Assembly: GCA_964426385.1 (NCBI GenBank)
Contig: CAYRQF010000002.1
Coordinates: 7,037 to 71,036 of the forward strand
DNA from: an uncultured Candidatus Saccharibacteria bacterium
GTDB lineage: Bacteria; Patescibacteriota; Minisyncoccia; Phycocordibacterales; CSBR16-119
DNA: 64,000 nt
Direction: 5' to 3'
Part shown: positions 11,564 through 64,000 of the stretch, one piece after another
Position numbering within the stretch: the first letter of the stretch is position 1
Layout of the letters: each line of letters starts with the position of its first letter
Program-made: the position numbers and the translations under genes
The notes under the pieces: model-generated
What the model was told of the DNA's origin: nothing
What the model saw: the letters and a program-made list of their open reading frames with translations, nothing else
Databases searched by the model: none

Positions 11564-13312
11564 ATGACATTCCTCCAGGGACTAGTTGAACAAGGGCTTT
11601 TATCCAAGGACCTGGTGTCTCATATTTCGAGTTCTGTAGAGGCTAAATACGGAGGGGATTTAGAAGAAGCTTTGTCCAAAGAAGCCAGTATTCCTGAGGA
11701 CAAAATGCTCGAGTACAAATCTACTTTCTACGGTATACCAGCTCGTTCAGTTGGACCAAAAGAACTCGACCCTCGAGTTTTAGAATACATATCTGAGGAT
11801 TCAGCTCGACAGTACGGATTTATTCCTGTTGGAATAAAAGATAACGTTCTCGAAGTCGGCATAGTTAATCCTGGACGTACGGATTCCCTCGATGCTCTAC
11901 AGTTTATCTCGTCTAAAAATGAGACACCATACAAGCTTTTTGTTTTAACAAAGAGAAATTACGATACATTACTGGAGGCATACAAGGGTCTGTCCGGGGA
12001 AGTAGACGCCGCACTTTCTGATCTCGACACTGAACTTTCGAAAGTCGACGGATTGAATAAACTCAAAGAAGCCGCTCGCACAGAGGCCGCTGCCGAAGGT
12101 CAGCCAGCTGAGGAAGATGAGAGAAAGATTGTTGAAGAGGCTCCGATAATCAAAGTCGTAGCAGTGACCCTGCGTCACGCTGTCGAGGGTGGTGCTTCAG
12201 ACATCCATATCGAGAACACTGGCAAAGAAGTCAAAGTGCGTTTTCGTGTCGATGGCGAACTACACACATCTCTCACTCTACCACTTAACGTCTATTCGGG
12301 AGTTGTCGCGCGTATCAAGATATTGGCCAAGCTTCGTCTCGATGAGAAGCGCAAGCCACAAGACGGAGGTTTCTCCGCGAAAATCGATGGTAGGAAAATC
12401 GACCTGCGTGTTTCGACATTCCCAGCATATTATGGTGAAAAAGTCGTGATGCGTATTCTGGATGCGGAGAAGGGAGTAAAAAGTTTGGATGATCTCAATA
12501 TGACGCCCGAGCATCTCAAGCTTATCCGTGACGCTATCAACATACCATACGGCATCGTGCTCATCACCGGTCCGACAGGAAGCGGTAAGACTACGACGCT
12601 ATATGCCATGCTAAACGAAATTGATCGCGAGTCGAAAAACGTCGTCTCTCTCGAAGACCCGGTCGAATACCATGTCGACGGAGTGAATCAGTCTCAGGTT
12701 ATGCCGGAGATCGGTTATACCTTTGCATCGGGACTTCGCTCCATCCTTCGTCAGGACCCGGATGTTATCCTGGTTGGAGAAATCCGCGACAAAGAAACTG
12801 CTGCTCTCGCTATCCAGGCCGCACTCACTGGACACTTGGTGTTATCCACTCTCCACACCAACAATGCTGCCGGTGCTATCCCTCGCCTCATCGACATGGG
12901 TGTCGACCCGTTCCTTATCGCTCCGACGTTAGTACTCGCTATCGCTCAGAGGTTGGCCAAGAAAACCTGCGAGGATTCTCGCGAACCTGTAGCGATAGAT
13001 GAGGCAACCAGGGTCATGATCGACAAAGAATTCGCTGACTTACCTCCAGAGTTCCGTTCCAAAATCACGATCCCCGAAAAGATGATGAAAACTGTTCCCT
13101 CGAAGACCTGCCCGTCTGGAACCAAGGGACGTATGGCTGTGTTCGAGATGTTTCCTGTAGATAAGGAGATTGAGTCAGTGATTTTGAAATCTCCGACTGA
13201 GCTCGATATATATAACGCAACCCGAAAGAAGGGCGTTCTGACGATGAGAGAAGATGCATTACTCAAGGCTCTGAAGGGAGATATCCCCATAACAGAAATG
13301 TATAAGTTCTAA
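11564..13312 (+). CDS. pilB: type IV pilus assembly ATPase PilB (GspE family)
   Basis: Walker A (GPTGSGKTT), a GspE N-domain, and a tetracysteine/His-box region. Confidence 0.9.
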   Translation: MTFLQGLVEQGLLSKDLVSHISSSVEAKYGGDLEEALSKEASIPEDKMLEYKSTFYGIPARSVGPKELDPRVLEYISEDSARQYGFIPVGIKDNVLEVGIVNPGRTDSLDALQFISSKNETPYKLFVLTKRNYDTLLEAYKGLSGEVDAALSDLDTELSKVDGLNKLKEAARTEAAAEGQPAEEDERKIVEEAPIIKVVAVTLRHAVEGGASDIHIENTGKEVKVRFRVDGELHTSLTLPLNVYSGVVARIKILAKLRLDEKRKPQDGGFSAKIDGRKIDLRVSTFPAYYGEKVVMRILDAEKGVKSLDDLNMTPEHLKLIRDAINIPYGIVLITGPTGSGKTTTLYAMLNEIDRESKNVVSLEDPVEYHVDGVNQSQVMPEIGYTFASGLRSILRQDPDVILVGEIRDKETAALAIQAALTGHLVLSTLHTNNAAGAIPRLIDMGVDPFLIAPTLVLAIAQRLAKKTCEDSREPVAIDEATRVMIDKEFADLPPEFRSKITIPEKMMKTVPSKTCPSGTKGRMAVFEMFPVDKEIESVILKSPTELDIYNATRKKGVLTMREDALLKALKGDIPITEMYKF

Positions 13313-13322
13313 AAAATATTTT

Positions 13323-14393
13323 ATGAATAACGAACTAATAATCCAAAAACTAAATAATCTGATCGAGCAAGTTATAGTGAACAACGGCTCAGATCTTCAT
13401 CTTGCTGTAGGGCGAGTACCGCATATTCGTGTCTCGACTCAGCTCATCGCAGTTGTGAATCAGCCTGTACTCGAAGAGGCCGAACTCGAAGCGATGCTAA
13501 GGTACATGCTAGCTGATGAGGAAAAGTTCGCTGATTTCAAGACGAATCATGAGGCAGATTTTGCCTATGACTACGCCGGTGGTTCGCGACTGCGGGGTAA
13601 CGCCTATTTCCAGAAAGGGAAACCTGCAATAGCACTGCGTCTCGTGCCAAAAGTCAAAAGTTTGCAGGAACTGAATCTCCCAAAACAGCTCGAGCAGTTC
13701 GCCAGGCTTAAACAGGGATTTTTCCTCATCGTTGGACCGGTTGGTCAGGGCAAGTCTACTACGATGGCTTCTCTTATCGAGCTTGTTAATGTTGAGAGGG
13801 CAGAGCATATCATTACTGTTGAAGAGCCGATCGAGTATCTGTTCGAGTCTAAGAAATCCATCATTGACCAGCGCGAGATAGGACTCGACACCAAGGATTT
13901 CGCTACGGCACTCAAGTCTGCGTTCCGTGAGGATGCGAACGTTCTCATGATCGGCGAGATGCGTAGCCCTGAGACTATATCGGCGGCAGTCACCGCTGCC
14001 GAAACTGGACACCTCGTCATATCGACTCTCCACACCAACAACGCACCACAGACCATCGACCGTATTATCGATTCTTTTCCAGCTGAACAGCAGGACCAAG
14101 CCCGCTCCCAACTCGCGAATTCTCTCGTCGGCATATTCTCCCAGCGTCTCATCCCGCGAACTAACGGCGGACTCATCCCAGCGTATGAACTTCTCATCAA
14201 CACCAAAGCTGTGGCGAACCTCATCCGTGAGAACCGTACGCACGAGATTGATGTCTTGATAGAGACAGGGTCTGAGCTCGGAATGATAGATATCAACCAC
14301 TCCCTCCTCGAGCTTGTCCGGCGGGGAGAGATCACCGTTGATGATGCTCGTTTCCACGCCTTCAACAAGAAGACATTCGAAAGTCTGTTATAA
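13323..14393 (+). CDS. pilT: twitching motility retraction ATPase PilT
   Basis: GPVGQGKSTT Walker A, HLVISTLHTNNA, and a PilT-like length of 356 aa. Confidence 0.9.
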   Translation: MNNELIIQKLNNLIEQVIVNNGSDLHLAVGRVPHIRVSTQLIAVVNQPVLEEAELEAMLRYMLADEEKFADFKTNHEADFAYDYAGGSRLRGNAYFQKGKPAIALRLVPKVKSLQELNLPKQLEQFARLKQGFFLIVGPVGQGKSTTMASLIELVNVERAEHIITVEEPIEYLFESKKSIIDQREIGLDTKDFATALKSAFREDANVLMIGEMRSPETISAAVTAAETGHLVISTLHTNNAPQTIDRIIDSFPAEQQDQARSQLANSLVGIFSQRLIPRTNGGLIPAYELLINTKAVANLIRENRTHEIDVLIETGSELGMIDINHSLLELVRRGEITVDDARFHAFNKKTFESLL

Positions 14394-14401
14394 TTTAACC
14401 A

Positions 14402-15604
14402 ATGTTATTCAAATATAAAGCCCTGGATCAGGCAGGCAAGAAAAAAGAAGGCACTATCGACGCACTGAACAAGACCGTGGCTATCGCCGCACTCCAGAGG
14501 CGAAGCCTTATCGTCGTATCTCTCAAGGGTGATGAGGACAAGTCTATATTTCGTGGAACGTTCCTCGATCGTGTTCCACTGCGCGATGTTGTCATCATGT
14601 CTCGTCAGCTTGCGACGCTCTTTTCGTCTCAGGTCTCTGCACTCAAAGCTTTCACACTACTTTCTGAGAACGCTGAGAACAAGATGCTCGCCGGACAGCT
14701 CCGTCAGATAGGCGACGACCTACAGGCTGGTTCGTCTATTTCGGACGCTTTGTCCAAGTATCCTGATACTTTCTCAGAGTTTTATGTGAACATGGTCAAA
14801 GCTGGCGAAGAGTCGGGTAAACTGAACGAAACCTTCGAATACCTCGCGCAGTATCTAGATCGCCAGTACAACCTGACATCGAAGACTCGGAATGCGCTCA
14901 TCTATCCAGCATTCGTCATCGTCGTCTTCATCTCCGTCATGATACTCATGTTCACCATGGTTATCCCGAACTTGGCTCAGCTCCTCCTTGAGTCCGGACA
15001 GGAGATACCGATATATACCCGCATAATCATCGGCATCAGTAACTTCTTAGTCAACTACGGTATATTTATTCTGATAATCGTTGTGATGGCTGTCATGTAC
15101 TTCTTCTGGTATAGGCGTAACGAGAATGGTAAAGAGTACATCGACAATATCAAGATATCTGTGCCTCTCATCGGCAATCTATACAGGAAAATGTTCCTGT
15201 CTCGTATCGCTGACAACCTTAACACCATGCTTTCATCCGGTATATCCATCGTTCGCTCTATAGAGATCACAGGAGACGTGGTGGGGAACTATGTTTACAG
15301 GAGGATTCTGCGAGAAACAGAAGACGCCGTGAAGTCCGGAAGCTCACTCTCTGATGCCCTAGGCAAATATCCTCAGATTCCGGCTATCATGGTGCAGATG
15401 ATAAAAGTGGGAGAAGAAACCGGAAGCCTCGGGTCTATCCTCAAGACTCTAGCCGAGTTTTATCGCCGAGAAGTAGATGATGCTGTCGATACGATGATCG
15501 GTCTCATCGAGCCGGCCATGATCGTGATGCTCGGTCTCGGCGTCGGTATACTTCTAACCTCAGTTCTCGTACCAATTTACAATATTGCTAGTTCTATTAG
15601 CTAA
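14402..15604 (+). CDS. pilC: type IV pilus platform protein PilC (GspF family)
   Basis: Two GspF repeats and three TM segments; 400 aa. Confidence 0.9.
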   Translation: MLFKYKALDQAGKKKEGTIDALNKTVAIAALQRRSLIVVSLKGDEDKSIFRGTFLDRVPLRDVVIMSRQLATLFSSQVSALKAFTLLSENAENKMLAGQLRQIGDDLQAGSSISDALSKYPDTFSEFYVNMVKAGEESGKLNETFEYLAQYLDRQYNLTSKTRNALIYPAFVIVVFISVMILMFTMVIPNLAQLLLESGQEIPIYTRIIIGISNFLVNYGIFILIIVVMAVMYFFWYRRNENGKEYIDNIKISVPLIGNLYRKMFLSRIADNLNTMLSSGISIVRSIEITGDVVGNYVYRRILRETEDAVKSGSSLSDALGKYPQIPAIMVQMIKVGEETGSLGSILKTLAEFYRREVDDAVDTMIGLIEPAMIVMLGLGVGILLTSVLVPIYNIASSIS

Positions 15605-15663
15605 CACAGGGGGAATTCTTTTCCACAGTTTAGATACGTGCCACGCTTGCCATAGGCGCATTG

Positions 15664-15672
15664 TGATATAAT
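15664..15672 (+). promoter_or_regulatory. extended -10 promoter element (TGaTATAAT) upstream of the major pilin
   Basis: TG at 15664-15665 and TATAAT at 15667-15672. The pilA ATG lies about 46 nt downstream. Confidence 0.45.
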
Positions 15673-15718
15673 GAACCTAAGAAATTTATTATTTATAAAA
15701 GTTAATTAGTATTTTATT

Positions 15719-16228
15719 ATGAAGTCCAAATCTAACCGTGGTTTTACATTGATCGAACTCTTGGTGGTCGTAGCCATCATCGGTATCCTTTCATCTATCG
15801 TCTTGGTCTCTCTGAATAGTGCAAGGTCAAAAGGTCGTGACGCTTCAGCCAAGGGAAGTCTCTCGTCTATGAGGGCAACCGCTGAGATATTTTTTGACAC
15901 TTATTCTTTCTATGGGCCAACAGGGAGCGCTGGGCAGATTGGTGATGCGGATAACCTTCTAGCTGGTCTTTCGCCCACAGATACGCTCGTTGATGCAACA
16001 AGTATCTGTGACTACATAGAAATTGTACGACTTGCCGACGCTGTACATGCGCAGACTCGTGAACCTGTCGAATGTGAGCCAGATGACGCGAACGCAAACG
16101 GAGCAAGCTATACTCTCTCAGCCTTACTGAATGATGGCAGAACATATTGTATCGATTCAACTGGATATGCTGGATATAATGATACAGACAACGGCACTGC
16201 TGTGAACCCAGGAATCTCTTGTAGATAA
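15719..16228 (+). CDS. pilA: type IV major pilin (prepilin with a class III signal peptide)
   Basis: NRG|FTLIELLVVVAIIGIL: G-1, F+1, E+5 and a hydrophobic N-terminal helix. Confidence 0.85.
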   Translation: MKSKSNRGFTLIELLVVVAIIGILSSIVLVSLNSARSKGRDASAKGSLSSMRATAEIFFDTYSFYGPTGSAGQIGDADNLLAGLSPTDTLVDATSICDYIEIVRLADAVHAQTREPVECEPDDANANGASYTLSALLNDGRTYCIDSTGYAGYNDTDNGTAVNPGISCR

Positions 16229-16242
16229 GATTAGGAAATTCA

Positions 16243-16275
16243 AAACAGCTCCATATGGAGCTGTTTTGAATTTTA
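16243..16275 (+). terminator. rho-independent terminator after pilA
   Basis: AAAACAGCTCCATATGGAGCTGTTTT perfect hairpin plus a T-run. Confidence 0.7.
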
Positions 16276-16343
16276 GACACATCGTCCCCAAACTGATTTT
16301 GTTTTCATTTCGATATAAATTCGTGTGGGGGTATAATTAAGAC

Positions 16344-17153
16344 ATGAATACCATCTTAGCTATTTTCGTTTTTGTTTTTGGTGCGATTATCGGGAGCTTC
16401 TTGAACGTGGTGATACTCCGTCTCGGTACAGGGCGTTCGCTCGGAGGACGTTCCATGTGTTCTGTGACTGGCAAACCCTTGAGATGGTTCGAGCTCATCC
16501 CGATCGTATCATTCATCATCCAGGGCGGTAGGTCCAGATATTCGAAGACTAAGATATCTTGGCAGTATCCACTAGTAGAATTCTTCACTGGATTATTGTT
16601 CCTATTCATCGCGATAAAGTTTCTACCTCTCATATATATCAGACCAGAGCTCGTACTCATAAATCTGCTTTTCTATTTTATTGTCGTGAGTTACCTGATT
16701 ATGATTTTCGTCTACGATATGAGGCATCGGATAATCCCTGACACGTTCCTCTATCCTCTAGCGGGGCTAATATTTATCGGAGTATTTTGTCTTCCACTAT
16801 TTCTCGGTGCCGATATAAACTCGAGTATCATCTGGCCACTTCTAGCGGGTCCCGTCGTCGCTCTGCCACTCCTCGCTCTATGGGTCATCACCCGCGGTAA
16901 GGGGATGGGGCTCGGAGATGTGAAACTCGTCGTTCCGCTCGGCTGGCTACTAGGGCTATCATCTGGATTCGCGATGCTTCTATTGTCGTTTTGGATTGGG
17001 GCCGTGGTTGCAATATTTCTCATCTTTTTTGCGAACAAGAAGATGAAAAGTGAGATACCATTTGGACCATTTATAATAATCAGTTTCATCCTGACGTTCT
17101 TGTATAATATAGATATGAACAGCATCTCGGCATTTTTCGGTGGTTTAATATAA
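16344..17153 (+). CDS. pilD: prepilin peptidase (A24 family)
   Basis: Polytopic membrane protein with a GAIIGSFLNVV N-terminus and a length of 269 aa. Confidence 0.85.
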   Translation: MNTILAIFVFVFGAIIGSFLNVVILRLGTGRSLGGRSMCSVTGKPLRWFELIPIVSFIIQGGRSRYSKTKISWQYPLVEFFTGLLFLFIAIKFLPLIYIRPELVLINLLFYFIVVSYLIMIFVYDMRHRIIPDTFLYPLAGLIFIGVFCLPLFLGADINSSIIWPLLAGPVVALPLLALWVITRGKGMGLGDVKLVVPLGWLLGLSSGFAMLLLSFWIGAVVAIFLIFFANKKMKSEIPFGPFIIISFILTFLYNIDMNSISAFFGGLI

Positions 17154-17154
17154 T

Positions 17155-17883
17155 ATGTTCAAAGATTTTTTTAATAAACGGGAAGTGAAAAGTGGTGACG
17201 CCTCTCGTTTTAATAATGCCGGCATGACGTTCATCGAACTTATCGTCGTACTCGGCATATTTGCTGCAGTTGCTGCGACAGTCCTGTTCAACTACCGCGG
17301 ATTTAGTAACAATGTCTCTCTTCAGAATCTAGCACAGGAAGTCGCCCTCCAGATAAAACGTGCGCAGACTGATGCTGTGTCAGGCAAGACTCCTGCACTG
17401 TCGGTTGTTCAACTACCGAACATCAACAACCTCCTTTCTCTGGATTGGACTCCGAGTTATGGTGTAGCCTTCGACAAGGAGGAATATCCTGGATCACTTT
17501 TCTTTTATTTCAACAAAGATGTCGGTTCTTCGAGTGAGATAAAGCTAGACTTTCTCGATATTGAGAACGGGAGCTACTCATCACCCTGCGGTAACAGTCA
17601 GACCTCTGAGTGTCTAGAGGAGTTGTTGCTTCCAGCAAATGTAGTGATAGATATGATATGTTTTGATTTTACTACGATAGTTCCACAAGGAGATTGCTCT
17701 GATGCTGACGGTGTCGAGGGTGATACAGCACATATCTCGTTCACTCGTCCACGAGGCAATGCCTCTATTATGGAGTTCGACGACGGTGACTATAACGGAA
17801 ATGTCTTCGTCAGACTCACAACAGTAGATGGAGGTAAACGATACATTGCCGTTTGGGAGTCAGGATATATAAGTATAAAATAG
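17155..17883 (+). CDS. minor (pseudo)pilin
   Basis: NAG|MTFIELIVVLGIF prepilin N-terminus with E+5. Confidence 0.75.
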   Translation: MFKDFFNKREVKSGDASRFNNAGMTFIELIVVLGIFAAVAATVLFNYRGFSNNVSLQNLAQEVALQIKRAQTDAVSGKTPALSVVQLPNINNLLSLDWTPSYGVAFDKEEYPGSLFFYFNKDVGSSSEIKLDFLDIENGSYSSPCGNSQTSECLEELLLPANVVIDMICFDFTTIVPQGDCSDADGVEGDTAHISFTRPRGNASIMEFDDGDYNGNVFVRLTTVDGGKRYIAVWESGYISIK

Positions 17884-17886
17884 GTT

Positions 17887-18564
17887 ATGCGTAACAGGAT
17901 GCTAAAAAGAGAAATCACTAATCAAAAAGGCTTTACTCTTGTCGAGATGATGATCGCCGTCGGATTATTCACCGTTCTCATGACAGTCGGCATCGGAGCC
18001 ATACTCGGTGTTAACTCAACCCACAGGAAGACTCAGACGATGCGGGCCGTTATAGACAACCTGTCGTTTCTCATGGAAGACATGGCTCGATCGATTCGTC
18101 TCGGAGACTCTTATTATTGTAAAGAGGATGGCGCGCCGAGTTTCATCGAGCTCTCTGGAGACGTGAATAATCCTCAGGCTTCAAACGATGGCGGTACGGC
18201 TAACAACCTCTGTGACAGTGTAGCGTTCGAGCCTTTCTGGGATTCACAGTTGAGTAATGTTTCGAATCAAATCATATATTATATGACCGAGATCGATGGT
18301 GTCGGTACCATCGTCAAGAAGTCTGAGCTTGCTTCATCAACGTTCAATATAGGCGACTGGGATCCAGTTACACCTACTGAGATTAATATTGATTTAGACC
18401 GATCGGGTTTTATGGTTGTTGGAGCAGAAGACCCAGCTGACTTTCGTCAGCCAAAAGTTTCTATCGTTCTCATAGGTACAGTCAGACTTGCAGGCTCTAT
18501 GACAGAGTTCAATCTCCAGACTACGGTGTCTCAGAGATCCCTCGATGTAAACATAACCCCATAA
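17887..18564 (+). CDS. minor pilin
   Basis: QKG|FTLVEMMIAVGLF prepilin N-terminus. Confidence 0.75.
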   Translation: MRNRMLKREITNQKGFTLVEMMIAVGLFTVLMTVGIGAILGVNSTHRKTQTMRAVIDNLSFLMEDMARSIRLGDSYYCKEDGAPSFIELSGDVNNPQASNDGGTANNLCDSVAFEPFWDSQLSNVSNQIIYYMTEIDGVGTIVKKSELASSTFNIGDWDPVTPTEINIDLDRSGFMVVGAEDPADFRQPKVSIVLIGTVRLAGSMTEFNLQTTVSQRSLDVNITP

Positions 18565-18565
18565 T

Positions 18566-19132
18566 ATGAAAAATGATTTTACGAACAAATCGAGAGGCTT
18601 CACCCTGATAGAGACCATTGTCGCTATCGCTATATTTGCTTTTGCTATCACCGGACTCATATCTATTACAGCAACAGGAGTTTTTAACACTAATTATGTT
18701 AAAAATAAATTCACTGCTTCATATCTAGCTCTGGAAGGGGCAGAGCTAGTTAGAAATATAAGGGATACTGCGGCTCTCTCAGCGAGCGATCTGAACGCGG
18801 CACTTAATGATACGACATATTTACGTAACTGTACGGGTTCTGTTGGTTGTCGTATAGATGCGTGGGCGGTAGCACAGCCTATAGACTGTGAAGCTGTTGA
18901 CGGTACTGCGTGTCGCAATCTCACGTACGACCGTGATACGGCGAAATTCAATTATGATTTCCCAGACAATATAGATGCGTTCGAGTCTATATTTCGTCGC
19001 ACTATCAATGTGACAACCGTGTCACCTGGTCAGGAGATACGGGTTATATCCAAAGTAGAGTGGAATCAGGGGAGGGAAATGCATGATGTTTCGTATACAT
19101 ACAACCTTTTGAATTGGACACTAGCACCTTAA
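18566..19132 (+). CDS. minor pilin
   Basis: SRG|FTLIETIVAIAIF prepilin N-terminus. Confidence 0.75.
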   Translation: MKNDFTNKSRGFTLIETIVAIAIFAFAITGLISITATGVFNTNYVKNKFTASYLALEGAELVRNIRDTAALSASDLNAALNDTTYLRNCTGSVGCRIDAWAVAQPIDCEAVDGTACRNLTYDRDTAKFNYDFPDNIDAFESIFRRTINVTTVSPGQEIRVISKVEWNQGREMHDVSYTYNLLNWTLAP

Positions 19133-19133
19133 T

Positions 19134-19601
19134 ATGAAAGATAATACTAAAAATAGTAATCGCGGGTTCGTAGCACTCTTTACCGTACTTATCGCTGCGG
19201 TTGTTCTCGCAATGGCGGTAGGTATCGCCAACATATCACTTAAACAGATCATACTGTCCGCTTCCTCGACTGACGCTAACGAGTCGTTTTATGCCGCTGA
19301 CTCTGGTGTAGAGTGCGTACTCTTCCACGATCTGCGGGGCACTACGCCAAACTCTTTTGATGCAAACCAAGCTTTTTCTACTATTGAGTGCGGGGGTATA
19401 AATATCCAAATTGCTCAGGTGGTTCCGGGGTTCTTTTTGGAATTCCAAGTACCATACAACGATAACAAGGCGTGTGCATATGTCACTGTTGAAAAGGATT
19501 TTACTGCCAATACGACACGGGTTATCTCTCGGGGCATTAATGCGACGTGCGGAGAACTGAATCCTCGTTCGACAGAGAGAGTCATCGAAGTCACCTATTA
19601 A
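19134..19601 (+). CDS. minor pilin, PilX-like (no Glu at +5)
   Basis: NRG|FVALFTVLIAAVVLAMAVGI. The four genes are spaced 1-4 bp apart, indicating an operon. Confidence 0.65.
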   Translation: MKDNTKNSNRGFVALFTVLIAAVVLAMAVGIANISLKQIILSASSTDANESFYAADSGVECVLFHDLRGTTPNSFDANQAFSTIECGGINIQIAQVVPGFFLEFQVPYNDNKACAYVTVEKDFTANTTRVISRGINATCGELNPRSTERVIEVTY

Positions 19602-31868: not shown

Positions 31869-32312
31869 TTAGAACGTCGCGACGGTTTCGTACTCCATCA
31901 CTGGAGGGTTGTAGTCAGGAGACCCTTCTTCGAATTCCTTGTGTCGGACTTCATATACATCACCAGCTTTTACAACTTTGAAATATTCACCGAAGCCGGC
32001 GTAGTAGCACATGATCATTGTACTGTCGTAGACATCGGCATCAGGGTCTGGATAATTCTCGCATCCACCTTGAACTTCACCGACATCTTTTTTCACAACT
32101 GTCCCGTCAGGATATGTGGCGGATAGGCTCACTTTGTTGTATGGGAATTCACCTTTTTCAAATGGTGAGTACTCCCATGCGAATGTCGGGTTACCAGCGG
32201 GCGTCTCTGCGACGGGGGTAGGGGTTTGAGCTTCTTTCGGCTCGGTGTCACGCAACAGGAAATATCCGCCGACGATGATAATTATTACTGCGATTAGGAT
32301 CTTTATGTTCAT
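31869..32312 (-). CDS. hypothetical membrane-anchored/secreted protein
   Basis: N-terminal TM helix or signal (IKILIAVIIIIVGGYFLL). Confidence 0.5.
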   Translation of the reverse strand: MNIKILIAVIIIIVGGYFLLRDTEPKEAQTPTPVAETPAGNPTFAWEYSPFEKGEFPYNKVSLSATYPDGTVVKKDVGEVQGGCENYPDPDADVYDSTMIMCYYAGFGEYFKVVKAGDVYEVRHKEFEEGSPDYNPPVMEYETVATF

Positions 32313-34961: not shown

Positions 34962-35032
34962 TGCCGGATCGTCTAATGGTAGGACATATCCCTCTGGAGG
35001 ATAGTATCTTGGTTCGAGTCCAGGTCCGGCAG
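34962..35032 (+). tRNA. tRNA-Gln (anticodon CTG)
   Basis: TGCCGGA TC GTCT AATGGTA GGAC A TATCC CTCTGGA GGATA GTAT CTTGG TTCGAGT CCAGG TCCGGCA G. U1:A72 and G73 are typical of tRNA-Gln. Confidence 0.85.
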
Positions 35033-35071
35033 CAAATTTGAGCAGAGTTCGGAGTACGAAGAGTATCATTT

Positions 35072-44150: not shown

Positions 44151-44855
44151 TTAAAAACCTAACTGTTTAAAGAGAGTCTTGAGCTCGGGGCCGGCAATTT
44201 TCTTGAACTGATTTGGTTTCAGTTTACCGAGTTCTATATTCATAACGCGGATTCGTTTCAGCTTCATGACTTTGTATCCGAGTGATCCACACATTTTCCT
44301 GATTTGGCGATTTTTGCCTTCGGTTAGGATTATCTGGAATGAGTGCTTGTCGACGCGCATTATCTTTGCCTTTTTTGTCGTATAACCATCGAGCTTGATC
44401 CCGAGACCCATCTTGACCAGAAAGGAGTGCGCGATCTCCGGAGAAACACTGACGAGATACTCCTTTTCATGGTCGTTGTCTGGATTTAGCAGTTTGTCGG
44501 TTAGACGGCCATCATTGGTCATGAGGATGAGCCCCTCAGAGTCCTTGTCGAGGCGGCCGAGTGGGAAGACTCGTTCGGGGAATTTGGCCCGCTCCTCTAT
44601 ACCGGGCTCCTCAGCCGTTCCTCCCACTGACAGCACTCCTACGGGCTTGTAGTAGGCATAATACGCGTACTCAGTGGCTTTTACGCCCTTTAGCGTCACT
44701 TCGTCCTTCTCGTAGACTGTGTCTCCGAGAACGGCCTTTTTGCCGTTTATATACACCTTTCCTGCAGATATGAGCTCATCCGCTCCACGCCTAGTAGCGT
44801 AGTTCTTGTGGGCGAGGTATTTGTTTATCCTCATCGGGAAACCTGATTCACTCAT
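44151..44855 (-). CDS. RsuA/RluB-family 16S/23S rRNA pseudouridine synthase
   Basis: S4 domain and a GRLDKDSEGLILMTNDG catalytic motif. Confidence 0.85.
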   Translation of the reverse strand: MSESGFPMRINKYLAHKNYATRRGADELISAGKVYINGKKAVLGDTVYEKDEVTLKGVKATEYAYYAYYKPVGVLSVGGTAEEPGIEERAKFPERVFPLGRLDKDSEGLILMTNDGRLTDKLLNPDNDHEKEYLVSVSPEIAHSFLVKMGLGIKLDGYTTKKAKIMRVDKHSFQIILTEGKNRQIRKMCGSLGYKVMKLKRIRVMNIELGKLKPNQFKKIAGPELKTLFKQLGF

Positions 44856-46012
44856 CTGGTGCGTGTTAGTCTCGAACTAAAGAATAATACAGTGAGCATT
44901 ACACAGCCGAGAACAATAAACAAGCCTCTGTATTCGGTCATAGTTAGGACGAATGTCGCCACAAGTGGCCCCAAGATGTAGGCAACAGGGGCCGCATTTC
45001 TAAACATCGCAATCATATGCGAATCCTCGGCGTCGACTTTTCGGAAGAAATAGCTCTCTGTTCCGACCTGGACGAACGAGGCTCCGACTCGAGTGAGTGT
45101 GAGCCCTATAGTCCAGTTCAAAAAGCTTCCATCTGCGAACAGTCCGAGGGCCGCAGTCGATAGCGCGATGATAACCAGTCCGATACTCATCAGATGCTTC
45201 TCACATCTATATTTGTCAGCGAGGCGGCCGATTGGAACTTCGAGTGTGATGTAGGGGATATGCATTATGGCGAACATGGCGCCTATTTGTTGCCAGTCAA
45301 ACCCGAGAAACATATTGAGATATATCGGCGTATAGACGGCCATCCAGCTGAAGAAAAAAGACAGCATCAGACTGACGATGTAGACATTGAAAAGATTATT
45401 GCTTCGCAGGAAACGGCGTATGATTTTCGGAAATGAGATATCTTTTCTTTCCGACAGTAGATCTATTTTCTCGAGATCTCTCATGAACACTAGGAACATG
45501 ATTATGATGAACATGCCAGCCGTCAGATAGACGAGCTCAAAAGAATTATTCACCAGTATCGTTCCAGCCAGTAGTGGTCCGATCAGGAATGCTAGGTTGT
45601 ACACAGCGAGATAGATTCCGCGTGTATTGCCAGTAGAGCCCTTTTTACTAAAATGCTCAATCAGCAGATCAATGGTGAAATATATCCCTATGCCGGCGGC
45701 TAGGTAAATGACGAAAAACGCCTGGAATAGTAGAGCGTTCTCCGTGTATATCATCCCGAGTATCGAGAGGAGATATGTGCCTGCGGTCAGATGGAACACC
45801 CCTCGAATGCCGATCTTTTTCAGTATGCTCGGCAAGTAGGCGAGGAAGACTATGGTTGTTATCGATCCGAGAGAGAACAATACTCCGACAGTTTTCACGC
45901 TGACGTATGTTCCAACGAAGGAAGAGTCGATGTAGCTTGTTAGCGCGAGTGCGATAGTCAGGAGGAACCCGACCAAAAAGACCGAACGCAGTTTGTTCGC
46001 AGAAGTATTCAC
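44852..46012 (-). CDS. MFS transporter
   Basis: 12-TM protein with an overall MFS-like layout. Confidence 0.75.
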   Translation of the reverse strand: MNTSANKLRSVFLVGFLLTIALALTSYIDSSFVGTYVSVKTVGVLFSLGSITTIVFLAYLPSILKKIGIRGVFHLTAGTYLLSILGMIYTENALLFQAFFVIYLAAGIGIYFTIDLLIEHFSKKGSTGNTRGIYLAVYNLAFLIGPLLAGTILVNNSFELVYLTAGMFIIIMFLVFMRDLEKIDLLSERKDISFPKIIRRFLRSNNLFNVYIVSLMLSFFFSWMAVYTPIYLNMFLGFDWQQIGAMFAIMHIPYITLEVPIGRLADKYRCEKHLMSIGLVIIALSTAALGLFADGSFLNWTIGLTLTRVGASFVQVGTESYFFRKVDAEDSHMIAMFRNAAPVAYILGPLVATFVLTMTEYRGLFIVLGCVMLTVLFFSSRLTRTR

Positions 46013-55027: not shown

Positions 55028-58000
55028 CTATATCTCCTTGATCGAATCGATCATGATAGTCTTCTCGCCTTCACGGATTTTGACTTTGGCTTTGATGGCG
55101 ACCACTTTGTCTTCCATTAGGATGTTCGCATATGTTTTGTAAGTCTCTGGGAAAGCTACAGCTTCGATGGTGCCTGTTAGGTCCTCGAGTTGGATGAACG
55201 CCATCTGCTGGTTCTTCTTGGTAATGATTATCTTCACAGTCTGGATGACAGAAGCTAGGGCTATGGATTCATCCTGTCTGCCGGTCGCCTTGACCCTAGA
55301 GATGGTGTTGCCACTTTTCTCGATCTTATCGCGGATACTATCGAGCGGGTGTCCCGAGACATACAGTCCGAGGAGTTCTTTTTCCCAGGCTAGACGGGTC
55401 TTCTGATCGGCCGGCGGAGCGTCGACGAGGGTGAGTTTAGACTTCGGAGCCAAGTCTCCACCGAATAGGCTACCCTGGTCTTTATTATTCTTGCTAAAAG
55501 ATTTGTTGAACTCGGTCAGGTTCTCGATATTCGCGACGAGCATACTACGTTCGCCGAATGAGTCCATGGCTCCGGACTTGATCAGAGCTTCTAGGGACTT
55601 CTTGTTTACATTTTTATGCGTTACCCGCTCGAGGAAGTCAGGGAGACTCGTGAATCTGCCACGAGCCTTGCGTTCTTCGATGATGGCGTCGGCGATATCC
55701 GTGCCGAGGTTTTTGATCGTGTAGAAGCCGAATCTGATAGCGTCTCTTTTCGTAGGGTCGTCGTTCTTGATGACAGTGAATCCACCAAAGCACTCGTTCA
55801 CGTCAGGAGGTAGGACTTCGATACCCATGCGTCCGCACTCATGGATGATTTCCGAAACCTTCTCGATGTCACCAGACTCAGCCGTGAGTATCGCTGTCAT
55901 GTAGGGAACTGGGAAGTTCGCCTTCATGTATGCAGTCTGATAAGCGACGCGTCCGTACGAGGCAGCGTGAGCTTTGTTGAATCCGTACGCAGCGAATGGT
56001 TCGATGAGTGCCCAGAGCTCCTCGGTTTTTTTCTTCTCCATACCATTGGCCACGAGGCCTTTTACGAGCTTGTCTTTCTCGGCGGCCATGACTTCAGGAA
56101 TTTTCTTACCCATGGCTTTGCGGAGCTTGTCGGCTTCGAGCCACGAGTATCCTCCGAGCTTGATAGCGATCATCATGACGTCGTCCTGGTAGGTGATAAC
56201 GCCGTAGGATAGGTCGAGGATATCTTTCATCCTGGGGTCGAGGAATCTGATGAGGTGGTGGTTATGTTTACGCTTGATATAGTCGGGAATCATTTCCATC
56301 GGCCCAGGACGATAGAGCGCTACCATGGCGTTGATGTCGTCGATGACGGTCGGACGGAGTTCTTTGAGGTAGCGAGTCATGCCAGAGCCGTTGAGCTGAA
56401 ACAGTCCGATAGTTTCACCACGGGCTAACATCTCGAAAGTTTTTCTATCATCCATCGGGATGTTTTCGATATCGATATCGACGTTTTCTATTTTCTTCAC
56501 CAGAGTTACAGCTCCAGCGAGGATTGCTAGGTTTCTGATACCGAGGAAGTCGAACTTGATGAGTCCAGCAGCTTCGACAGCGTGCATGTCGTACTGAGTG
56601 ATAATCTTGCCACCTTTGGGGTCGAGCTGGATCGGGGCATAGTCATCGACGCGTGTCGGGGAGATAACAACACCGGCGGCATGCACACTGATGTGACGTG
56701 CACAGCCTTCTATCTTCTTGGCGAGGTCGATTATTTCCTTGGTTGGCTTGTCAGTGTCATACATTTTCTTCAGCTCCTCGACCATCTCCATGGCATGGTC
56801 GATTGTCATAGCGAAGCCCTGCTTGCCTAGCGGGATGAGCTTCGAGATGGTGTCACCGACACCGTAAGGGTGGCCGAGTGCGCGAGCGACATCGCGTACA
56901 GATCCGCGAGCCATCATGGTACCGAATGTTCCGATCTGGGCCACAGCTGCCTCACCGTACTTTTGTTTGGCGTACTCGATGACTTCGTCGCGTCTATCGT
57001 CGGCGAAGTCCATATCTATATCGGGAGCTGATGGGCGCTCTGGGTTTAGGAATCGTTCAAATGGTAGCTGGAAACGGAATGGGTCGACGGTCGTGATACC
57101 TAGGAGGTATGAGCAGATAGATCCGGCGACCGATCCTCGGATGTTCGTCAGAATGCCGTTCTCTCGAGCGAAGCGGATGAGGTCGGCCACGATGAGGAAG
57201 TAGATAGGGAAGCCTTTTTGTTCGATGACTTGGAGCTCGTATTCTATACGCTCCTCGATTTTCTTATTGATGGTTCCATATCTTCCTGGAACACCGGCAT
57301 AGACTTTTTTCTTGAGTTGGGACTCGGGAGTTTCTCCAGCTTCGAGTTCGAATTTGGGGAAGACCCATTTGCCGAGTTCGATGTCGATACTGACCATGTC
57401 TGCCACTTTGTTCGTCTGTTCGACGGCCTCTGGTGTGTCGTGGAAGAATTCGAGCGCTTTCGCCGGGTCGATGAAAGAATAGTCGCCACCCATCTTCATG
57501 CCTGAGCCCTGGGTGTTGATATTGAGTAGAGTGTTGTGCGCTTCTTTGTCATCCTCGTGCAGGTAGTGCGAGTCCCATGTTGCGACGATGGGGATATCGA
57601 ACTCACCTGAAAGTTTCTTAACCCCAGCTTTCAATACTTCATACCCCTCCACCTCGGCATGGCCCATGAGTTCGAGGAAGAAATTCTCCTTGCCGAAGAT
57701 ACTTTGGTATTTTTCGATGATTTGCTTTTGTTTCGACGGATCATTCGCGCGGATAGCGTGTGCGAGCTCGCCAGCCGGGCATCCGGAGAGACAGATGATG
57801 CCTTCTGAGTATTGACGCAGGAGTTCCTCGTCCATGCGTGGTTTGTAATAGTATCCATCGATGAATGACATGGATACGAGCTTCATGATGTTTTTGTAAC
57901 CTTGGTTATTCTTGGCGAGGAGAGTCAGGTGGTAGCGCTTTGAATCGATGTTGGCTTCTTTGTCGAAACGTGTTCGCTCGGCGATATAGGCCTCGACGCC

Positions 58001-58195
58001 GATGATCGGCTTGATGCCTGCTTTCTTGCATTCCTGGTAGAACTCGATGGCGCCATACATCGCGCCATGGTCAGTGAGGGCTAGCGCTTCCATGCCATGC
58101 TTTTTAGCTTCGTCCACCAAATCCTCTATTTTTGACATCCCGTCCAGGAGGGAATAATGCGAATGTGTATGCAGATGGACGAATTTTTGGCTCAT
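55028..58195 (-). CDS. dnaE: DNA polymerase III alpha subunit
   Basis: PHP domain (HLHTHSHYSLLDG), polymerase core and an OB domain; 1055 aa. Confidence 0.95.
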   Translation of the reverse strand: MSQKFVHLHTHSHYSLLDGMSKIEDLVDEAKKHGMEALALTDHGAMYGAIEFYQECKKAGIKPIIGVEAYIAERTRFDKEANIDSKRYHLTLLAKNNQGYKNIMKLVSMSFIDGYYYKPRMDEELLRQYSEGIICLSGCPAGELAHAIRANDPSKQKQIIEKYQSIFGKENFFLELMGHAEVEGYEVLKAGVKKLSGEFDIPIVATWDSHYLHEDDKEAHNTLLNINTQGSGMKMGGDYSFIDPAKALEFFHDTPEAVEQTNKVADMVSIDIELGKWVFPKFELEAGETPESQLKKKVYAGVPGRYGTINKKIEERIEYELQVIEQKGFPIYFLIVADLIRFARENGILTNIRGSVAGSICSYLLGITTVDPFRFQLPFERFLNPERPSAPDIDMDFADDRRDEVIEYAKQKYGEAAVAQIGTFGTMMARGSVRDVARALGHPYGVGDTISKLIPLGKQGFAMTIDHAMEMVEELKKMYDTDKPTKEIIDLAKKIEGCARHISVHAAGVVISPTRVDDYAPIQLDPKGGKIITQYDMHAVEAAGLIKFDFLGIRNLAILAGAVTLVKKIENVDIDIENIPMDDRKTFEMLARGETIGLFQLNGSGMTRYLKELRPTVIDDINAMVALYRPGPMEMIPDYIKRKHNHHLIRFLDPRMKDILDLSYGVITYQDDVMMIAIKLGGYSWLEADKLRKAMGKKIPEVMAAEKDKLVKGLVANGMEKKKTEELWALIEPFAAYGFNKAHAASYGRVAYQTAYMKANFPVPYMTAILTAESGDIEKVSEIIHECGRMGIEVLPPDVNECFGGFTVIKNDDPTKRDAIRFGFYTIKNLGTDIADAIIEERKARGRFTSLPDFLERVTHKNVNKKSLEALIKSGAMDSFGERSMLVANIENLTEFNKSFSKNNKDQGSLFGGDLAPKSKLTLVDAPPADQKTRLAWEKELLGLYVSGHPLDSIRDKIEKSGNTISRVKATGRQDESIALASVIQTVKIIITKKNQQMAFIQLEDLTGTIEAVAFPETYKTYANILMEDKVVAIKAKVKIREGEKTIMIDSIKEI

Positions 58196-58241: not shown

Positions 58242-58838
58242 ATGGAACCGAAATTCATCGTTGGCATAGACGAAGTGGGTAGGGGTCCCGTAGCAGGGCC
58301 GGTGTATGTCTGCGCCTTTTGGGCGAAGGCCGAGAGTCTCCCGGAGATAATCTCCGGAAGCCTTCTGCCCGTGCGTGATTCGAAAAAGCTCACGAAGAAA
58401 ATGCGGGAAAAGTGGTTCAAGTATCTGCAGGACCGGGCCGGTGAGGGGAATTTCCGATACGTGATATCTAAAGCTTCGAATGTCGAGATAGATACCAAAG
58501 GTATCGCCGTGTGCATCAAGGCCTGTGTAAATAATTGTCTCGAGAAACTCAAGCTTGATAAGGAGAACACAAAAGTGTATCTTGATGGCGGTCTATACGC
58601 CGACAGTATATATATGCAGGAGACTGTCGTGAAAGGGGACGAGAATATTCCCATAATCTCACTCGCATCTATCATCGCCAAAGTCTCGCGTGATGCTGAG
58701 ATGGAGAAACTCGCATTAGATTTCCCTGAGTATATGTGGAGTAAAAATATGGGTTATGGGACGAGCGCGCATATGGATGCGGTCAAGAAATTAGGTACGA
58801 CCCCTTTACACCGAGTGTCATTTTTAAAAAATGTCTAA
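58242..58838 (+). CDS. rnhB: ribonuclease HII
   Basis: IVGIDEVGRGPVAGPV. Confidence 0.9.
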   Translation: MEPKFIVGIDEVGRGPVAGPVYVCAFWAKAESLPEIISGSLLPVRDSKKLTKKMREKWFKYLQDRAGEGNFRYVISKASNVEIDTKGIAVCIKACVNNCLEKLKLDKENTKVYLDGGLYADSIYMQETVVKGDENIPIISLASIIAKVSRDAEMEKLALDFPEYMWSKNMGYGTSAHMDAVKKLGTTPLHRVSFLKNV

Positions 58839-59487
58839 AAATTTAGAAAATATAATACTAATAGATAAACCGAAAGGCATAACATCTTTTGATGTAATCA
58901 GACGGCTGCGGAAGCAAACGGGTATCAGGAAAATGGGACATGCCGGAACGCTTGATCCACTCGCGACAGGACTCATGATCATTGGAGTGAATGAAGGAAC
59001 GAAACGGATGGAAGAGTTCCTAAAGCTCGACAAGACATACGATGCCGAGATACTCCTCGGTACGCGGACTGATACAGGAGACCTCGAGGGCGAGGTGCTC
59101 GAGGTTCGTGATGTCTACGATGTGGAAGAAGATTATGTAGAAGAGGTGCTAAATAATTTTCAGGGTGTATTTGAGATACCAGTTCCGAAATATTCAGCGA
59201 TAAAAAAAGCAGGGAAGCCTTTGTATGCATACGCCCGAGAGGGGATCGACGTAGACGCTCCTGTAAAGCCAATGAAAGTTTATAAAAGTAAGTTTTTGGG
59301 TCTAGAAGAAGTAGAAGAGGGCTTCCTTTTGAAGGTTCGATTTGATGTCGCTAGTGGGGTATATATCCGTTCTCTGGTTGAGTACCTAGGAGGGTTCCTA
59401 GATGTTCCGGCAACACTCGCGAATCTAAGAAGGACTAGAGTAGGGGATTTCGATATCAAATCGGCCCGCACACTTGATAAAGTGTAG
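58831..59487 (+). CDS. truB: tRNA pseudouridine(55) synthase TruB (short form, no PUA domain)
   Basis: LIDKPKGITSFDVIRRLRK...GHAGTLDPLATGLM. It overlaps rnhB by 8 bp. Confidence 0.9.
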   Translation: MSKNLENIILIDKPKGITSFDVIRRLRKQTGIRKMGHAGTLDPLATGLMIIGVNEGTKRMEEFLKLDKTYDAEILLGTRTDTGDLEGEVLEVRDVYDVEEDYVEEVLNNFQGVFEIPVPKYSAIKKAGKPLYAYAREGIDVDAPVKPMKVYKSKFLGLEEVEEGFLLKVRFDVASGVYIRSLVEYLGGFLDVPATLANLRRTRVGDFDIKSARTLDKV

Positions 59488-59566
59488 CGGGTAAACTAAA
59501 AAGCTTCACCCGGACACGAGTGAGCGATAGGTGGAAAATATCCCTAAATATAGGGCTTTTTGGGCC

Positions 59567-59595
59567 TATTTTAGGCTTGACGTATCGAACTATAT
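59567..59595 (+). promoter_or_regulatory. sigma70-type promoter: TTGACG, 17-bp spacer, TATGAT
   Basis: Read directly. It follows the truB terminator hairpin (CCCTAaataTAGGG plus a T-run at about 59530..59550). Confidence 0.5.
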
Positions 59596-59678
59596 GTGAT
59601 ATGATACAGCCAAGCCGAAAGACTATACGAGTCTAGTAGGGTTCCTTCAAAACTTCACCAACAAACACACCTCCAAGC

Positions 59679-60650
59679 ATGAAAATCTTGAAACACTTGA
59701 TCGCATTTGTTGCGGTCTACCTCGGAGTGACCGAGTCGAGCGCTCAGACGATGAACATCGTGTGGGATGCGAACATCAGACCGAATTCACGAACGGTTCG
59801 TCTCTCGTATGATTTCGGAAACACGACCTACACCCTCAAGGTGCATGTCAGAGACCTCGGCGATGATCAACCTGTGTGGACATACTATGAGCAGCTCGAC
59901 ATGCAACTTTCGGGGTCCGGGACGTTCACGCTTCTCGTGGACTATGGCATCCAGGATCACCAGCATACGCATCAGATCGATTTTCGACTGAAAGAGCAGG
60001 GCAGTTCGTCGGCATGGCTTGAGAATCCGAACTGGCAAGTGGCTGGTTTCCAGCCACTTGATCCAGCGACGCTCACCATCACCGATGTGCAGGATAACCA
60101 GCACTACTACCGGTTTACCGTGGAAGCCAAATACGGTCAGCAGATCCAGGAGGACTCGGTCAAGCTCGTGATGGATATCGACAACATCTCGGACGGTAAT
60201 AGCGATCAGCAGACCGTTTTTATCAATGCGGGTCAGACCTTTACTTGGAACCCAGAGCTATATTTCTGGGGTCCTGGGGTCTATCAGGTCTGCTTTGAGA
60301 TCTGGTACAAGGACGCCAACGTTTTCCCGCTTTGGAACTGGACGCTTATCAAGACGAACTGCGGATATCCCGATCCGATGGTCATCGAGTATGACTTATC
60401 GACCGCTACTGAAGAGGTCGAAGCCCCGAAATGTGGTTCGCCCAAGGCATGGCCGAATCCGACATCGGGACCCATCACGCTCGAAGGTTTCGCGCCCGAG
60501 CGTGAGATCAACCTGGTGGATGCAGCCGGCAAAACCATCACCTCCTACAGTGGTATGACGCAGCAGCTGGATCTTTCGATGTTCAGCAATGGCGTGTATG
60601 TCCTCTCGCAGGGCGACAAGGGATGTTTCAGTGTGGTGAAGCAGAATTGA
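59679..60650 (+). CDS. secreted protein with a C-terminal T9SS (Por secretion system) type-A sorting domain
   Basis: Signal peptide. The C-terminus reads AWPNPTSGPITLEGFAPEREINLVDAAGKTITSYSGMTQQLDLSMFSNGVYVLSQGDKGCFSVVKQN and matches the PNP...G..I.L.D..GK......L..G.Y.... pattern of the T9SS C-terminal sorting domain. The gene is GC-richer than its flanks. Confidence 0.7.
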   Translation: MKILKHLIAFVAVYLGVTESSAQTMNIVWDANIRPNSRTVRLSYDFGNTTYTLKVHVRDLGDDQPVWTYYEQLDMQLSGSGTFTLLVDYGIQDHQHTHQIDFRLKEQGSSSAWLENPNWQVAGFQPLDPATLTITDVQDNQHYYRFTVEAKYGQQIQEDSVKLVMDIDNISDGNSDQQTVFINAGQTFTWNPELYFWGPGVYQVCFEIWYKDANVFPLWNWTLIKTNCGYPDPMVIEYDLSTATEEVEAPKCGSPKAWPNPTSGPITLEGFAPEREINLVDAAGKTITSYSGMTQQLDLSMFSNGVYVLSQGDKGCFSVVKQN

Positions 60651-60659
60651 CGACTTCTC

Positions 60660-60722
60660 GCGAAAGCGATAAGTGAGGGCCCTGGGATGATTCCCGGGGC
60701 CTTTCGCTTTTCATGGTAATTT
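60660..60722 (+). terminator. compound GC-rich terminator (GCGAAAGCG..GGCCCTGGGA tgat TCCCGGGGCC..CGCTTTCGC plus a T-run)
   Basis: Nested inverted repeats. Confidence 0.6.
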
Positions 60723-60774
60723 CATTTTATATGTATAAAATTGTATAATTAGCACTCATAAATTAATAAAAGAC

Positions 60775-63292: not shown

Positions 63293-64000
63293 ATGAAAAA
63301 AGATATTGAGAGAGCTCTGTACTCCATCGGAGCCTTGGCACTGGTTGTAGTCGTAACCTGGCTGTTCTCATTAACAATCGTAAGCCGTGACACCCAACAA
63401 GCTCGTGTTACATCTTCTACTGCGTCCAAATACCCAACAAGCGACGAAGCTCTAAAAACTCTCATGAGTGAACGGGCTCGAACAACATCATTCAGAGATC
63501 GCGACTTCGCTTCAGCTTGCGTCGCCGGCGCTATCAAATGCGGCAAGATCGTCATAGAAAAGAGCGCTCTTCCAGAATCAAACCTTGATTTCACTTTTTA
63601 TACCAACGTCCCAAACTATCCGAGCTTTATGCTCGATGATGACGCCACGCTTGATAACTCAGCACTTCCAAATACTCAAACGATTTTTACCTCTCCAAAC
63701 GGCAACTACATTGTCGCCGAGATGCCATCACCAAGCGAATACAGTACGGTCCTAGCGTGCTCTGATCCGTCAGGGAACTCTGTCGTACTTACCGGAAGTG
63801 TTGCCGCCGTTATTATCAATATGAATGCGGGTGAGACTGTTAATTGTACGTTTAGGAATATTATGGTGCCACAAGAGCCGATGGCGTGTGAACCGGATAC
63901 ATGGACACAAAAGGCAGATTTTGGTGGTGTCGGTAGAAATGGTGCAACAGGATTTTCTATCGGGACCAAGGGGTATATCGGTACGGGATATAATAATTTA
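63293..64000 (+). CDS. N-terminal part of a membrane-anchored/secreted protein that continues beyond the window (3'-truncated)
   Basis: Hand translation from ATG 63293: MKKDIERALYSIGALALVVVVTWLFS... The frame stays open to the window end (236 codons). It is absent from the ORF track because it has no stop. Confidence 0.45.
   Translation, partial: MKKDIERALYSIGALALVVVVTWLFSLTIVSRDTQQARVTSSTASKYPTSDEALKTLMSERARTTSFRDRDFASACVAGAIKCGKIVIEKSALPESNLDFTFYTNVPNYPSFMLDDDATLDNSALPNTQTIFTSPNGNYIVAEMPSPSEYSTVLACSDPSGNSVVLTGSVAAVIINMNAGETVNCTFRNIMVPQEPMACEPDTWTQKADFGGVGRNGATGFSIGTKGYIGTGYNNL

Follow-up and report, generated by a model that had tools for sequence, protein, structure and literature searches.

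The C-terminal domain (CTD) of type IX secretion system (T9SS) cargo proteins counts as a hallmark of outer-membrane secretion for the Fibrobacteres-Chlorobi-Bacteroidetes (FCB) group and is widely used for cargo prediction. What is such a domain doing at the end of a secreted protein in the ultrasmall Candidatus Saccharibacteria? The question is raised by a stretch of 64,000 nt from contig CAYRQF010000002.1 (assembly GCA_964426385.1, positions 7,037 to 71,036), hereafter referred to as the window, in which an open reading frame (ORF) for a protein of 323 aa lies on the forward strand at 59679..60650, stop codon included. We use X to refer to this gene and "slot" to refer to its position between truB and gdh. 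A preliminary description of the window had reported the ORF with its C-terminus, which was matched exactly at these coordinates, and had offered three explanations for the domain: horizontal acquisition from a Bacteroidota host or neighbour, a mis-binned or chimeric contig, or a repurposed domain. The evidence summarized here favours the last of these. X is probably a Sec-exported, hypervariable surface or secreted protein of three β-sandwiches with a repurposed CTD and, as the other half of the same reading, its gene is a resident of one clade of Saccharibacteria (Patescibacteria) that is inherited vertically and evolves very fast; its export route, localisation and role are what we infer.

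The identification of the domain as a T9SS CTD proved to be correct. In a Pfam scan, PF18962 (Por_Secre_tail) matched aa 258-311 of X with 31.3 bits against a gathering score of 27 (E = 2.5e-7), and the orthologues scored 20.6-27.2 bits. The whole domain, which is of the T9SS type A-like kind, covers aa 256-323 (60444..60647, +) and is predicted to form a seven-stranded immunoglobulin (Ig)-like sandwich with the motifs PNP, DxxG(K/R), GxY and a terminal VVK. A profile built from the Saccharibacterial family CTDs alone retrieved 96 proteins, all 96 of which carry PF18962, with E-values down to 1e-11; the named matches were Bacteroidota "T9SS type A sorting domain" proteins (Flavobacteriales, Hymenobacter, Segetibacter, Lutibacter). 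Against the PDB, the same profile matched 5jvk, 7pzj, 8glk_D (NucA's CTD as part of the translocon complex), 5uyt and 5m11 (PorZ) as single C-terminal stretches, and the WD40 matches of that search, each the sum of many weak repeat matches, were discarded. The AlphaFold2 (AF2) model of the CTD alone has seven strands and a predicted local distance difference test (pLDDT) score of 92.3. Its top PDB match in Foldseek was 8glk_D (template modelling score (TM) 0.74, root-mean-square deviation 2.8 Å, 75 columns), followed by 8glj_D and, lower in the list, by the CTDs of PorZ, RgpB and 5hfs (5m11, 7pq4, 5hfs); the E-values of about 1e-2 are weak because the domain is small. It was reported that type A CTDs are compact seven-stranded (3+4) Ig-like β-sandwiches at the extreme C-terminus, and that a Gly at the start of β4 (motif L-β3-β4) and the Lys of β7 (motif C-t.) are needed for secretion in P. 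gingivalis (PMC11285876). In the X family the CTD likewise stands at the extreme C-terminus in all alleles, PNP and GxY are retained in the alignment, and among 14 members G284 never varies and K321 is kept in at least 90%, in columns that align with Bacteroidota CTDs; these two residues were matched to those of RgpB by the alignment pattern (D-x-x-G-R/K). As judged by profiles and models, the C-terminal domain of X and the type A CTD of T9SS cargo are truly homologous.

The window itself was taken in the preliminary description to be monoderm, with pili that lack a secretin, and this was borne out. The type IV pilus cluster at 8171-19601 (+) is complete and comprises pilM, pilO, pilB, pilT, pilC, the major pilin gene, pilD and four minor pilin-like genes, as well as two unassigned genes (9320-10078 and 10724-11485), and includes no secretin, as expected for Saccharibacteria. 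No outer-membrane gene and none of the T9SS machinery, be it SprA/Sov, PorK/L/M/N, PorV or PorU, was found among the approximately 55 window proteins scanned, nor in the related loci. SecA, TatC, DnaE, RNase J and peptidoglycan hydrolases with PG_binding_1 domains are also encoded in the window. A scan with the glutamate dehydrogenase encoded by gdh identified metagenome-assembled genomes of Candidatus Saccharibacteria and Patescibacteria group bacteria as the nearest genomic relatives (77-78% identity), and about 225 kb of related-locus sequence, mostly Saccharibacterial, contained no CTD-bearing ORF besides X. Patescibacteria have been described as monoderm (PMC11665869), and the T9SS as confined to the FCB group or superphylum (PMC11205867). 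Since the T9SS belongs to the outer membrane of FCB-group bacteria and Patescibacteria are monoderm, the CTD is most likely not a T9SS export signal here.

Could the combination be an artefact? An assembly chimera or a mis-binned contig, for which nothing speaks beyond the unexpected domain, was refuted by independent assemblies and can be dismissed with near certainty. A protein identical to X is present in both NCBI and Logan records, the latter on an independent contig (L001) that preserves both junctions. In L002, an ENA assembly with an 85% identical orthologue, the order rnhB-truB-X-gdh-DUF2914 is the same, and DNA identity between L002 and the window runs unbroken through both X junctions. 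The gene order of the locus, dnaE-rnhB-truB-[X]-gdh-DUF2914, was recovered in assemblies from ENA, JGI, Logan and NCBI.

Relatives of X were sought by several routes. A word-indexed full-protein search returned only X itself and the 85% orthologue, and scans of genome and metagenome contigs with the X protein or the family alignment found nothing. The N-terminal 257 aa of X, used as the query of an exhaustive HMMER search against 1.84 billion representative proteins, gave 17 matches at E ≤ 1e-3; 13 of them, with lengths of 300-340 aa, align over most of the query, while P0010-P0012 and P0016 are unrelated long multi-repeat proteins that were not accepted as family members. Among these representatives, full-length homologues of the N-terminal domains are confined to a small slot family, whose members, as seen by alignment, consist of a signal peptide, two domains and the CTD, measure about 300-350 aa and are encoded between truB and gdh. 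All eleven alleles whose position was looked up (the window, L002, L003, L004, P0003, P0009, P0014, P0015, P0017, P0020 and P0021; L003 and L004 were reached via the neighbouring gdh) lie in the truB-[X]-gdh slot, in at least ten independent assemblies (ENA, JGI, Logan, NCBI; different samples). The family N-terminal hidden Markov model matched the slot ORF in every locus, including that of L004 (8.6e-9). Most X alleles are 21-36% identical to one another; across loci, the flanking proteins are 57-83% identical and X 23-30%.

The compositional signal proved weaker than first described. The preliminary description had spoken of a GC-rich island in AT-rich flanks, and the GC content of X is indeed raised (52.8% versus 45.8% for the window). 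Of the 57 genes, X has the highest GC content at third codon positions (GC3; 0.675, z = +2.1), and among the 27 with 250 codons or more it deviates furthest in codon usage (relative synonymous codon usage distance 0.605; next 0.486). The signal is nevertheless modest: the GC3 distribution is continuous, with other genes at 0.651, 0.636 and 0.628 (dnaE), the tetranucleotide profile deviates no more than moderately (z = -1.9), and the genes flanking X are ordinary, with 44-49% GC, the AT-rich parts being short intergenic spacers only. Raised GC or GC3 relative to the neighbours recurs in L002, L004 (0.561 for X versus 0.43-0.47) and L010, though not in L007 and L011. This recurrence marks it as a property of the gene and not the scar of a fresh import; the latter interpretation was rejected, as the orthologues in question have diverged to 23-30% identity. 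A separate observation concerns the opposite end of the window, where a gene for a 940-aa secreted protein with MG2 (alpha-2-macroglobulin-like) domains (1642-4464, +) includes the most tetranucleotide-atypical part of the sequence (1.7-3.3 kb; r = 0.12-0.24 versus a mean of 0.60) and far exceeds X in this respect.

The promoter was examined as well. A consensus scan located a sigma-70-type promoter with an extended -10 element at 59577..59605 (+), reading TTGACG, 17 nt and (TG)TGATATGAT, with 10 of 12 consensus positions matched; the TTGACG-17-TATGAT promoter proposed earlier is thus present and has, in addition, a TG preceding the -10 box. Among eight orthologous upstream regions, the -35 element TTGAC is kept in seven, being absent from the short L004 fragment, and the -10 core TGATA..ATA is invariant in all eight, in loci whose coding flanks retain 57-83% protein identity.

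These results bear on the proposal that X is an island recently acquired from Bacteroidota and visible by its GC content. Its top GC3, the most deviant codon usage among the long genes and the Bacteroidota origin of the CTD relatives outside the family speak for such an acquisition. However, the same slot is occupied in every related genome examined, mostly by alleles of the low mutual identity given above, the native-type promoter is conserved, and the raised GC recurs in orthologues. No tRNA gene lies nearby (the nearest is at 34962-35033), and X is bordered on both sides by housekeeping genes (rnhB, truB, gdh and the DUF2914 gene) and not by integrases. The full-length homologues of the N-terminal domains, confined as they are to the slot family, speak against it as well. 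We therefore regard recent acquisition as very improbable. The nearest CTDs outside the family are encoded on contigs with the LPS-transport genes LptF/G, SprB repeats and several clustered CTD genes, which indicates, from gene content, diderm Bacteroidota-type genomes. It is plausible that the CTD module came from FCB bacteria by an ancient transfer, although the short length (about 70 aa) and fast evolution of the domain leave room for an older ancestry.

How the gene diversifies was revealed by comparison with L002, the nearest genome. DNA identity over the locus is mostly about 95-100% (90-100% in most 100-nt windows), whereas a cassette of about 330 bp (60345..60675, +), which comprises the end of the second domain, the linker, the CTD and about 25 nt of 3' untranslated region, drops to 49-63%; from the terminator stem on, identity is again about 100%. 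Synonymous divergence (dS) is 1.61 in the cassette versus 0.13-0.18 in the N-terminal part of X, gdh and the DUF2914 gene, and the ratio of nonsynonymous to synonymous divergence (dN/dS) of the cassette is 0.21. The high dS combined with this low ratio implies that the cassette was swapped for a long-diverged allele under purifying selection and did not arise by local decay. Similar discordance was observed within the family: the N-terminal region and the CTD are 33% and 88% identical between P0003 and P0009, 95% and 52% between P0001 and P0002, and 62% and 24% between P0015 and P0018. These alignments indicate that the N-terminal and CTD modules have incongruent histories. Upstream of X, identity to L002 falls to 72-84% at 58329-58528, inside rnhB, and to 45% at 59429-59528, at the 3' end of truB and the adjoining spacer, against a background of about 96%, and dS of rnhB is 0.44 versus 0.13-0.18 elsewhere; these patches suggest that small recombination tracts or indels are common around the locus. 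As to the C-terminal ends, P0018, P0020 (L010 10001-10981) and P0021 (L011 5916-6845) finish with ...KAH(K/Q)TYSI(I/V)R or ...RKLSHFNR, and by alignment they form a degenerate or re-modelled CTD subtype in the slot family.

Mosaic hypervariable surface-protein loci that occupy a fixed chromosomal position and are diversified by module recombination form a class known in many bacteria. X resembles them in its fixed slot between housekeeping genes, in the contrast between alleles (21-36% identity) and flanks (57-83%), in its sharp breakpoints and in its incongruent N- and C-terminal modules. It differs from them in showing neither silent cassettes nor inverted repeats nor diversity-generating elements at the locus, and in that exchange appears to take place between genomes and not within one. 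Any antigenic or receptor-binding function of X would be putative.

The rest of the protein is consistent with export. Its N-terminus, MKILKHLIAFVAVYLGVTESSAQ, has the features of a Sec-type signal peptide (aa 1-23; 59679..59747, +), in that its n-region is basic, its h-region hydrophobic and its c-region made up of small residues; it lacks a lipobox and is modelled as a low-confidence helix at aa 4-14. Signal peptidase I would likely cleave at SSA|Q, giving Gln at position +1, and the "AQ" at the end of the signal peptide is kept in 10 of 14 family members. Two β-sandwich domains follow. The first (aa 24-124; 59748..60050, +) is all-β, lineage-specific and modelled with pLDDT of about 73-88; the second (aa 131-236; 60069..60386, +) reaches about 80-93 and contains the motif WYKDAxxxPLWxW and the conserved Cys205 and Cys228. 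A flexible linker (aa 237-255; 60387..60443, +) that includes Cys252 leads to the CTD, with pLDDT below 50 for aa 240-253. In many alleles one further Cys is found before PNP and another before the last strand, and the conserved Cys pairs of the family are consistent with a protein outside the cytoplasm. The full-length AF2 model (pLDDT 77.8) shows three β-sandwiches, with aa 240-253 disordered, and no enzyme-like domain; the Pfam scan of X gave no match in the N-terminal domains. Foldseek with this model returned generic fibronectin type III (FN3)-, Ig- and macroglobulin (MG)-like neighbours from the PDB and BFVD at TM 0.2-0.3, and no function was drawn from such generic tandem-FN3 matches. 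Vibrio RbmA and the MG domains of alpha-2-macroglobulin share the tandem β-sandwich fold class with the model of X, and the TM of 0.2-0.3 and identity of 8-13% amount to a generic fold resemblance that gives no evidence of common function.

Based on these observations, the repurposed-CTD reading can be put as follows. X would be exported by Sec and act outside the cytoplasm as three Ig/FN3-like β-sandwiches, its CTD being kept, probably, as a folded module at the surface that binds or anchors. Homologous recombination between strains would exchange the N-terminal and the CTD cassettes. On the cell surface or released from it, X would probably take part in contacts with phages or the host bacterium, a role suggested by the hypervariability together with the modular exchange of N-terminal and CTD cassettes.

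T9SS type A cargo is the closest known system, exemplified by RgpB and by the CTDs of NucA and FspA bound in the SprA translocon (PDB 8glk, 8glj). In functional cargo of this kind PorU cleaves off the CTD, and the protein is then attached to anionic LPS or released. X shares with such cargo a Sec signal peptide joined to a seven-stranded Ig-like CTD of about 70 aa, the PNP, DxxG(R/K) and GxY motifs and the Lys in the last strand, similarity of the CTD at the level of profiles and of the structural model, and a probable Gln at +1, as in the Bacteroidetes Q-rule, by which Gln follows the signal-peptide cleavage site (PMC5837995). Unlike this cargo, X belongs to a monoderm patescibacterial host outside the FCB group, without T9SS or outer-membrane genes in the window, and is the sole CTD gene in about 225 kb, whereas T9SS genomes carry dozens. 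Its passenger consists of two lineage-specific β-sandwiches and is neither an enzyme nor a long adhesin, it scores below the TIGR04183 cutoff, its CTD cassettes are swapped between strains, and some of its alleles are degenerate.

Two alternatives keep a recognition function for the CTD. In the first, which is unlikely, the domain would serve a dedicated sorting route other than the T9SS, in which a PorU-like or other enzyme removes the CTD and fixes X to the cell wall or S-layer, by analogy with sortase and exosortase systems. Its placement at the extreme C-terminus in all alleles, the conservation of recognition-type motifs under purifying selection and the lack of any other anchor in the X sequence (LPXTG, C-terminal transmembrane segment or lipobox) would fit such a route. 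On the other hand, systems of this type usually serve several substrates, whereas X is the single CTD-bearing ORF in the related-locus sequence, and no candidate peptidase adjoins X in any locus.

The second alternative, which we rate as slightly less likely still, is that the parasitic or epibiotic cell displays the CTD as a counterfeit T9SS tag. The tag would dock on T9SS components exposed at the surface of an FCB/Bacteroidota host (its PorV shuttle, attachment complex or SprA translocon), so that binding gives attachment or entry, or it would be handled by the host T9SS; swaps of the cassette would then track the CTD compatibility of different hosts. CTDs are reported to be species-incompatible between T9SSs (PMC11285876), and this incompatibility would account for the diversity of cassettes. 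The conservation of the T9SS-relevant Gly and Lys positions (PMC11285876), the purifying selection on the CTD (dN/dS 0.21) while whole cassettes swap between genomes, the probable Gln +1 of the Q-rule (PMC5837995) and the Bacteroidota-type genomes around the nearest non-family CTDs also agree with it. Yet the Saccharibacteria brought into culture are all reported to grow on Actinobacteria (PMC10633639), this clade has no known host, and nothing in the present data points to co-occurrence with Bacteroidota. Gly and Lys may be conserved for structural reasons, and the CTD is degenerate in some alleles.

Several points weigh against the favoured reading of X as a surface protein with a repurposed CTD. 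TIGR04183, the model named in the preliminary description as a check, scored 19.4 bits on the same stretch as PF18962, below the curated cutoff of 23 (E = 7.7e-4). PNP and the terminal VK are lost in P0018, P0020 and P0021, so constraint on the CTD is not uniform and a functional CTD may not hold across the whole clade. Conserved Gly and Lys under purifying selection would be easier to explain with a surviving partner that recognizes the CTD, and this recognition-type conservation is the main point that a plain repurposed fold does not fully explain. Nor does the reading account for the raised GC3 of X. Finally, the absence of T9SS and PorU-like proteins from the genome is concluded from phylum-level knowledge, the part directly covered being the 64-kb window of a contig of about 124 kb.

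Transcription of X would start a leader of about 73 nt (59606..59678, +), which in an alignment of eight loci is A/C-rich, G-poor and without a Shine-Dalgarno sequence; the A/C-rich character is common to the orthologous upstream regions, and a semi-conserved CCTT(C/G)AAAC motif lies at 59644-59653. The missing Shine-Dalgarno sequence was considered as a Bacteroidota-like trait and dropped, since a GGAG/GAGG/AGGA motif was found upstream of only 5 of the 57 window genes. Many window genes have instead a TAnAAT or TGnTAnAAT box that ends about 5-10 nt before the start codon (e.g., at 1642, 8171, 14402 and 16344 and, on the minus strand, 31869-32312, 44852-46012 and 55028-58195), which suggests that leaderless or near-leaderless mRNAs are widespread in the window, X with its leader being an exception. 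A small hairpin, AGAC-TATACGA-GTCT, at 59620-59636 may be a leader structure; L014 and L016 have equivalents with changed yet complementary stems, and it is deleted from L007, L010 and L011. Downstream of X, the GC-rich terminator noted earlier was located at 60675..60704 (+) as an intrinsic hairpin of 13 bp with 8 GC pairs, followed by a T-run. Its core (GGCCCTGGGATGATTCCCGGGGCC) is identical in L002, directly after the divergent cassette, with two bases differing at the 5' edge.

Further genes were observed around the slot. In L010, an extra 629-aa secreted-type protein with NHL/He_PIG matches is encoded between X and gdh (11059-12948), and in L011 an extra ORF of at least 443 aa occupies the same place (6928-8256); neither has a CTD, and the truB-gdh slot seems to collect surface proteins. 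A Kelch-type β-propeller protein is encoded after the DUF2914 gene in the window (63293-64000, +), L001 (7180-8652) and L007 (13577-15388). In L007 the next gene encodes a DUF4907 protein. DUF4907 occurs mainly in Bacteroides, and the gene may be another FCB-flavoured gene by the locus.

A full-text literature search for Saccharibacteria or Patescibacteria together with the T9SS returned, by titles and abstracts, no work on CTDs in their proteins, and within the literature searchable in this way a T9SS-type CTD in Saccharibacteria appears to be undescribed. With X, a monoderm lineage of the candidate phyla radiation (CPR) carries, in one of its conserved genes, a CTD that is genuine and maintained by selection. 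A CTD match alone does not imply a T9SS, which is relevant to automatic annotation and to quality control of binning, and X lets one ask, in a natural setting, which function the CTD fold has when its machine is absent. The gene also marks a hypervariable, recombining secreted-protein locus in Saccharibacteria, of the kind expected to mediate contact with hosts or phages. If the CTD were in fact a mimic of T9SS cargo, an environmental clade of Saccharibacteria would have FCB hosts, and this would be a new principle of host recognition for the CPR.

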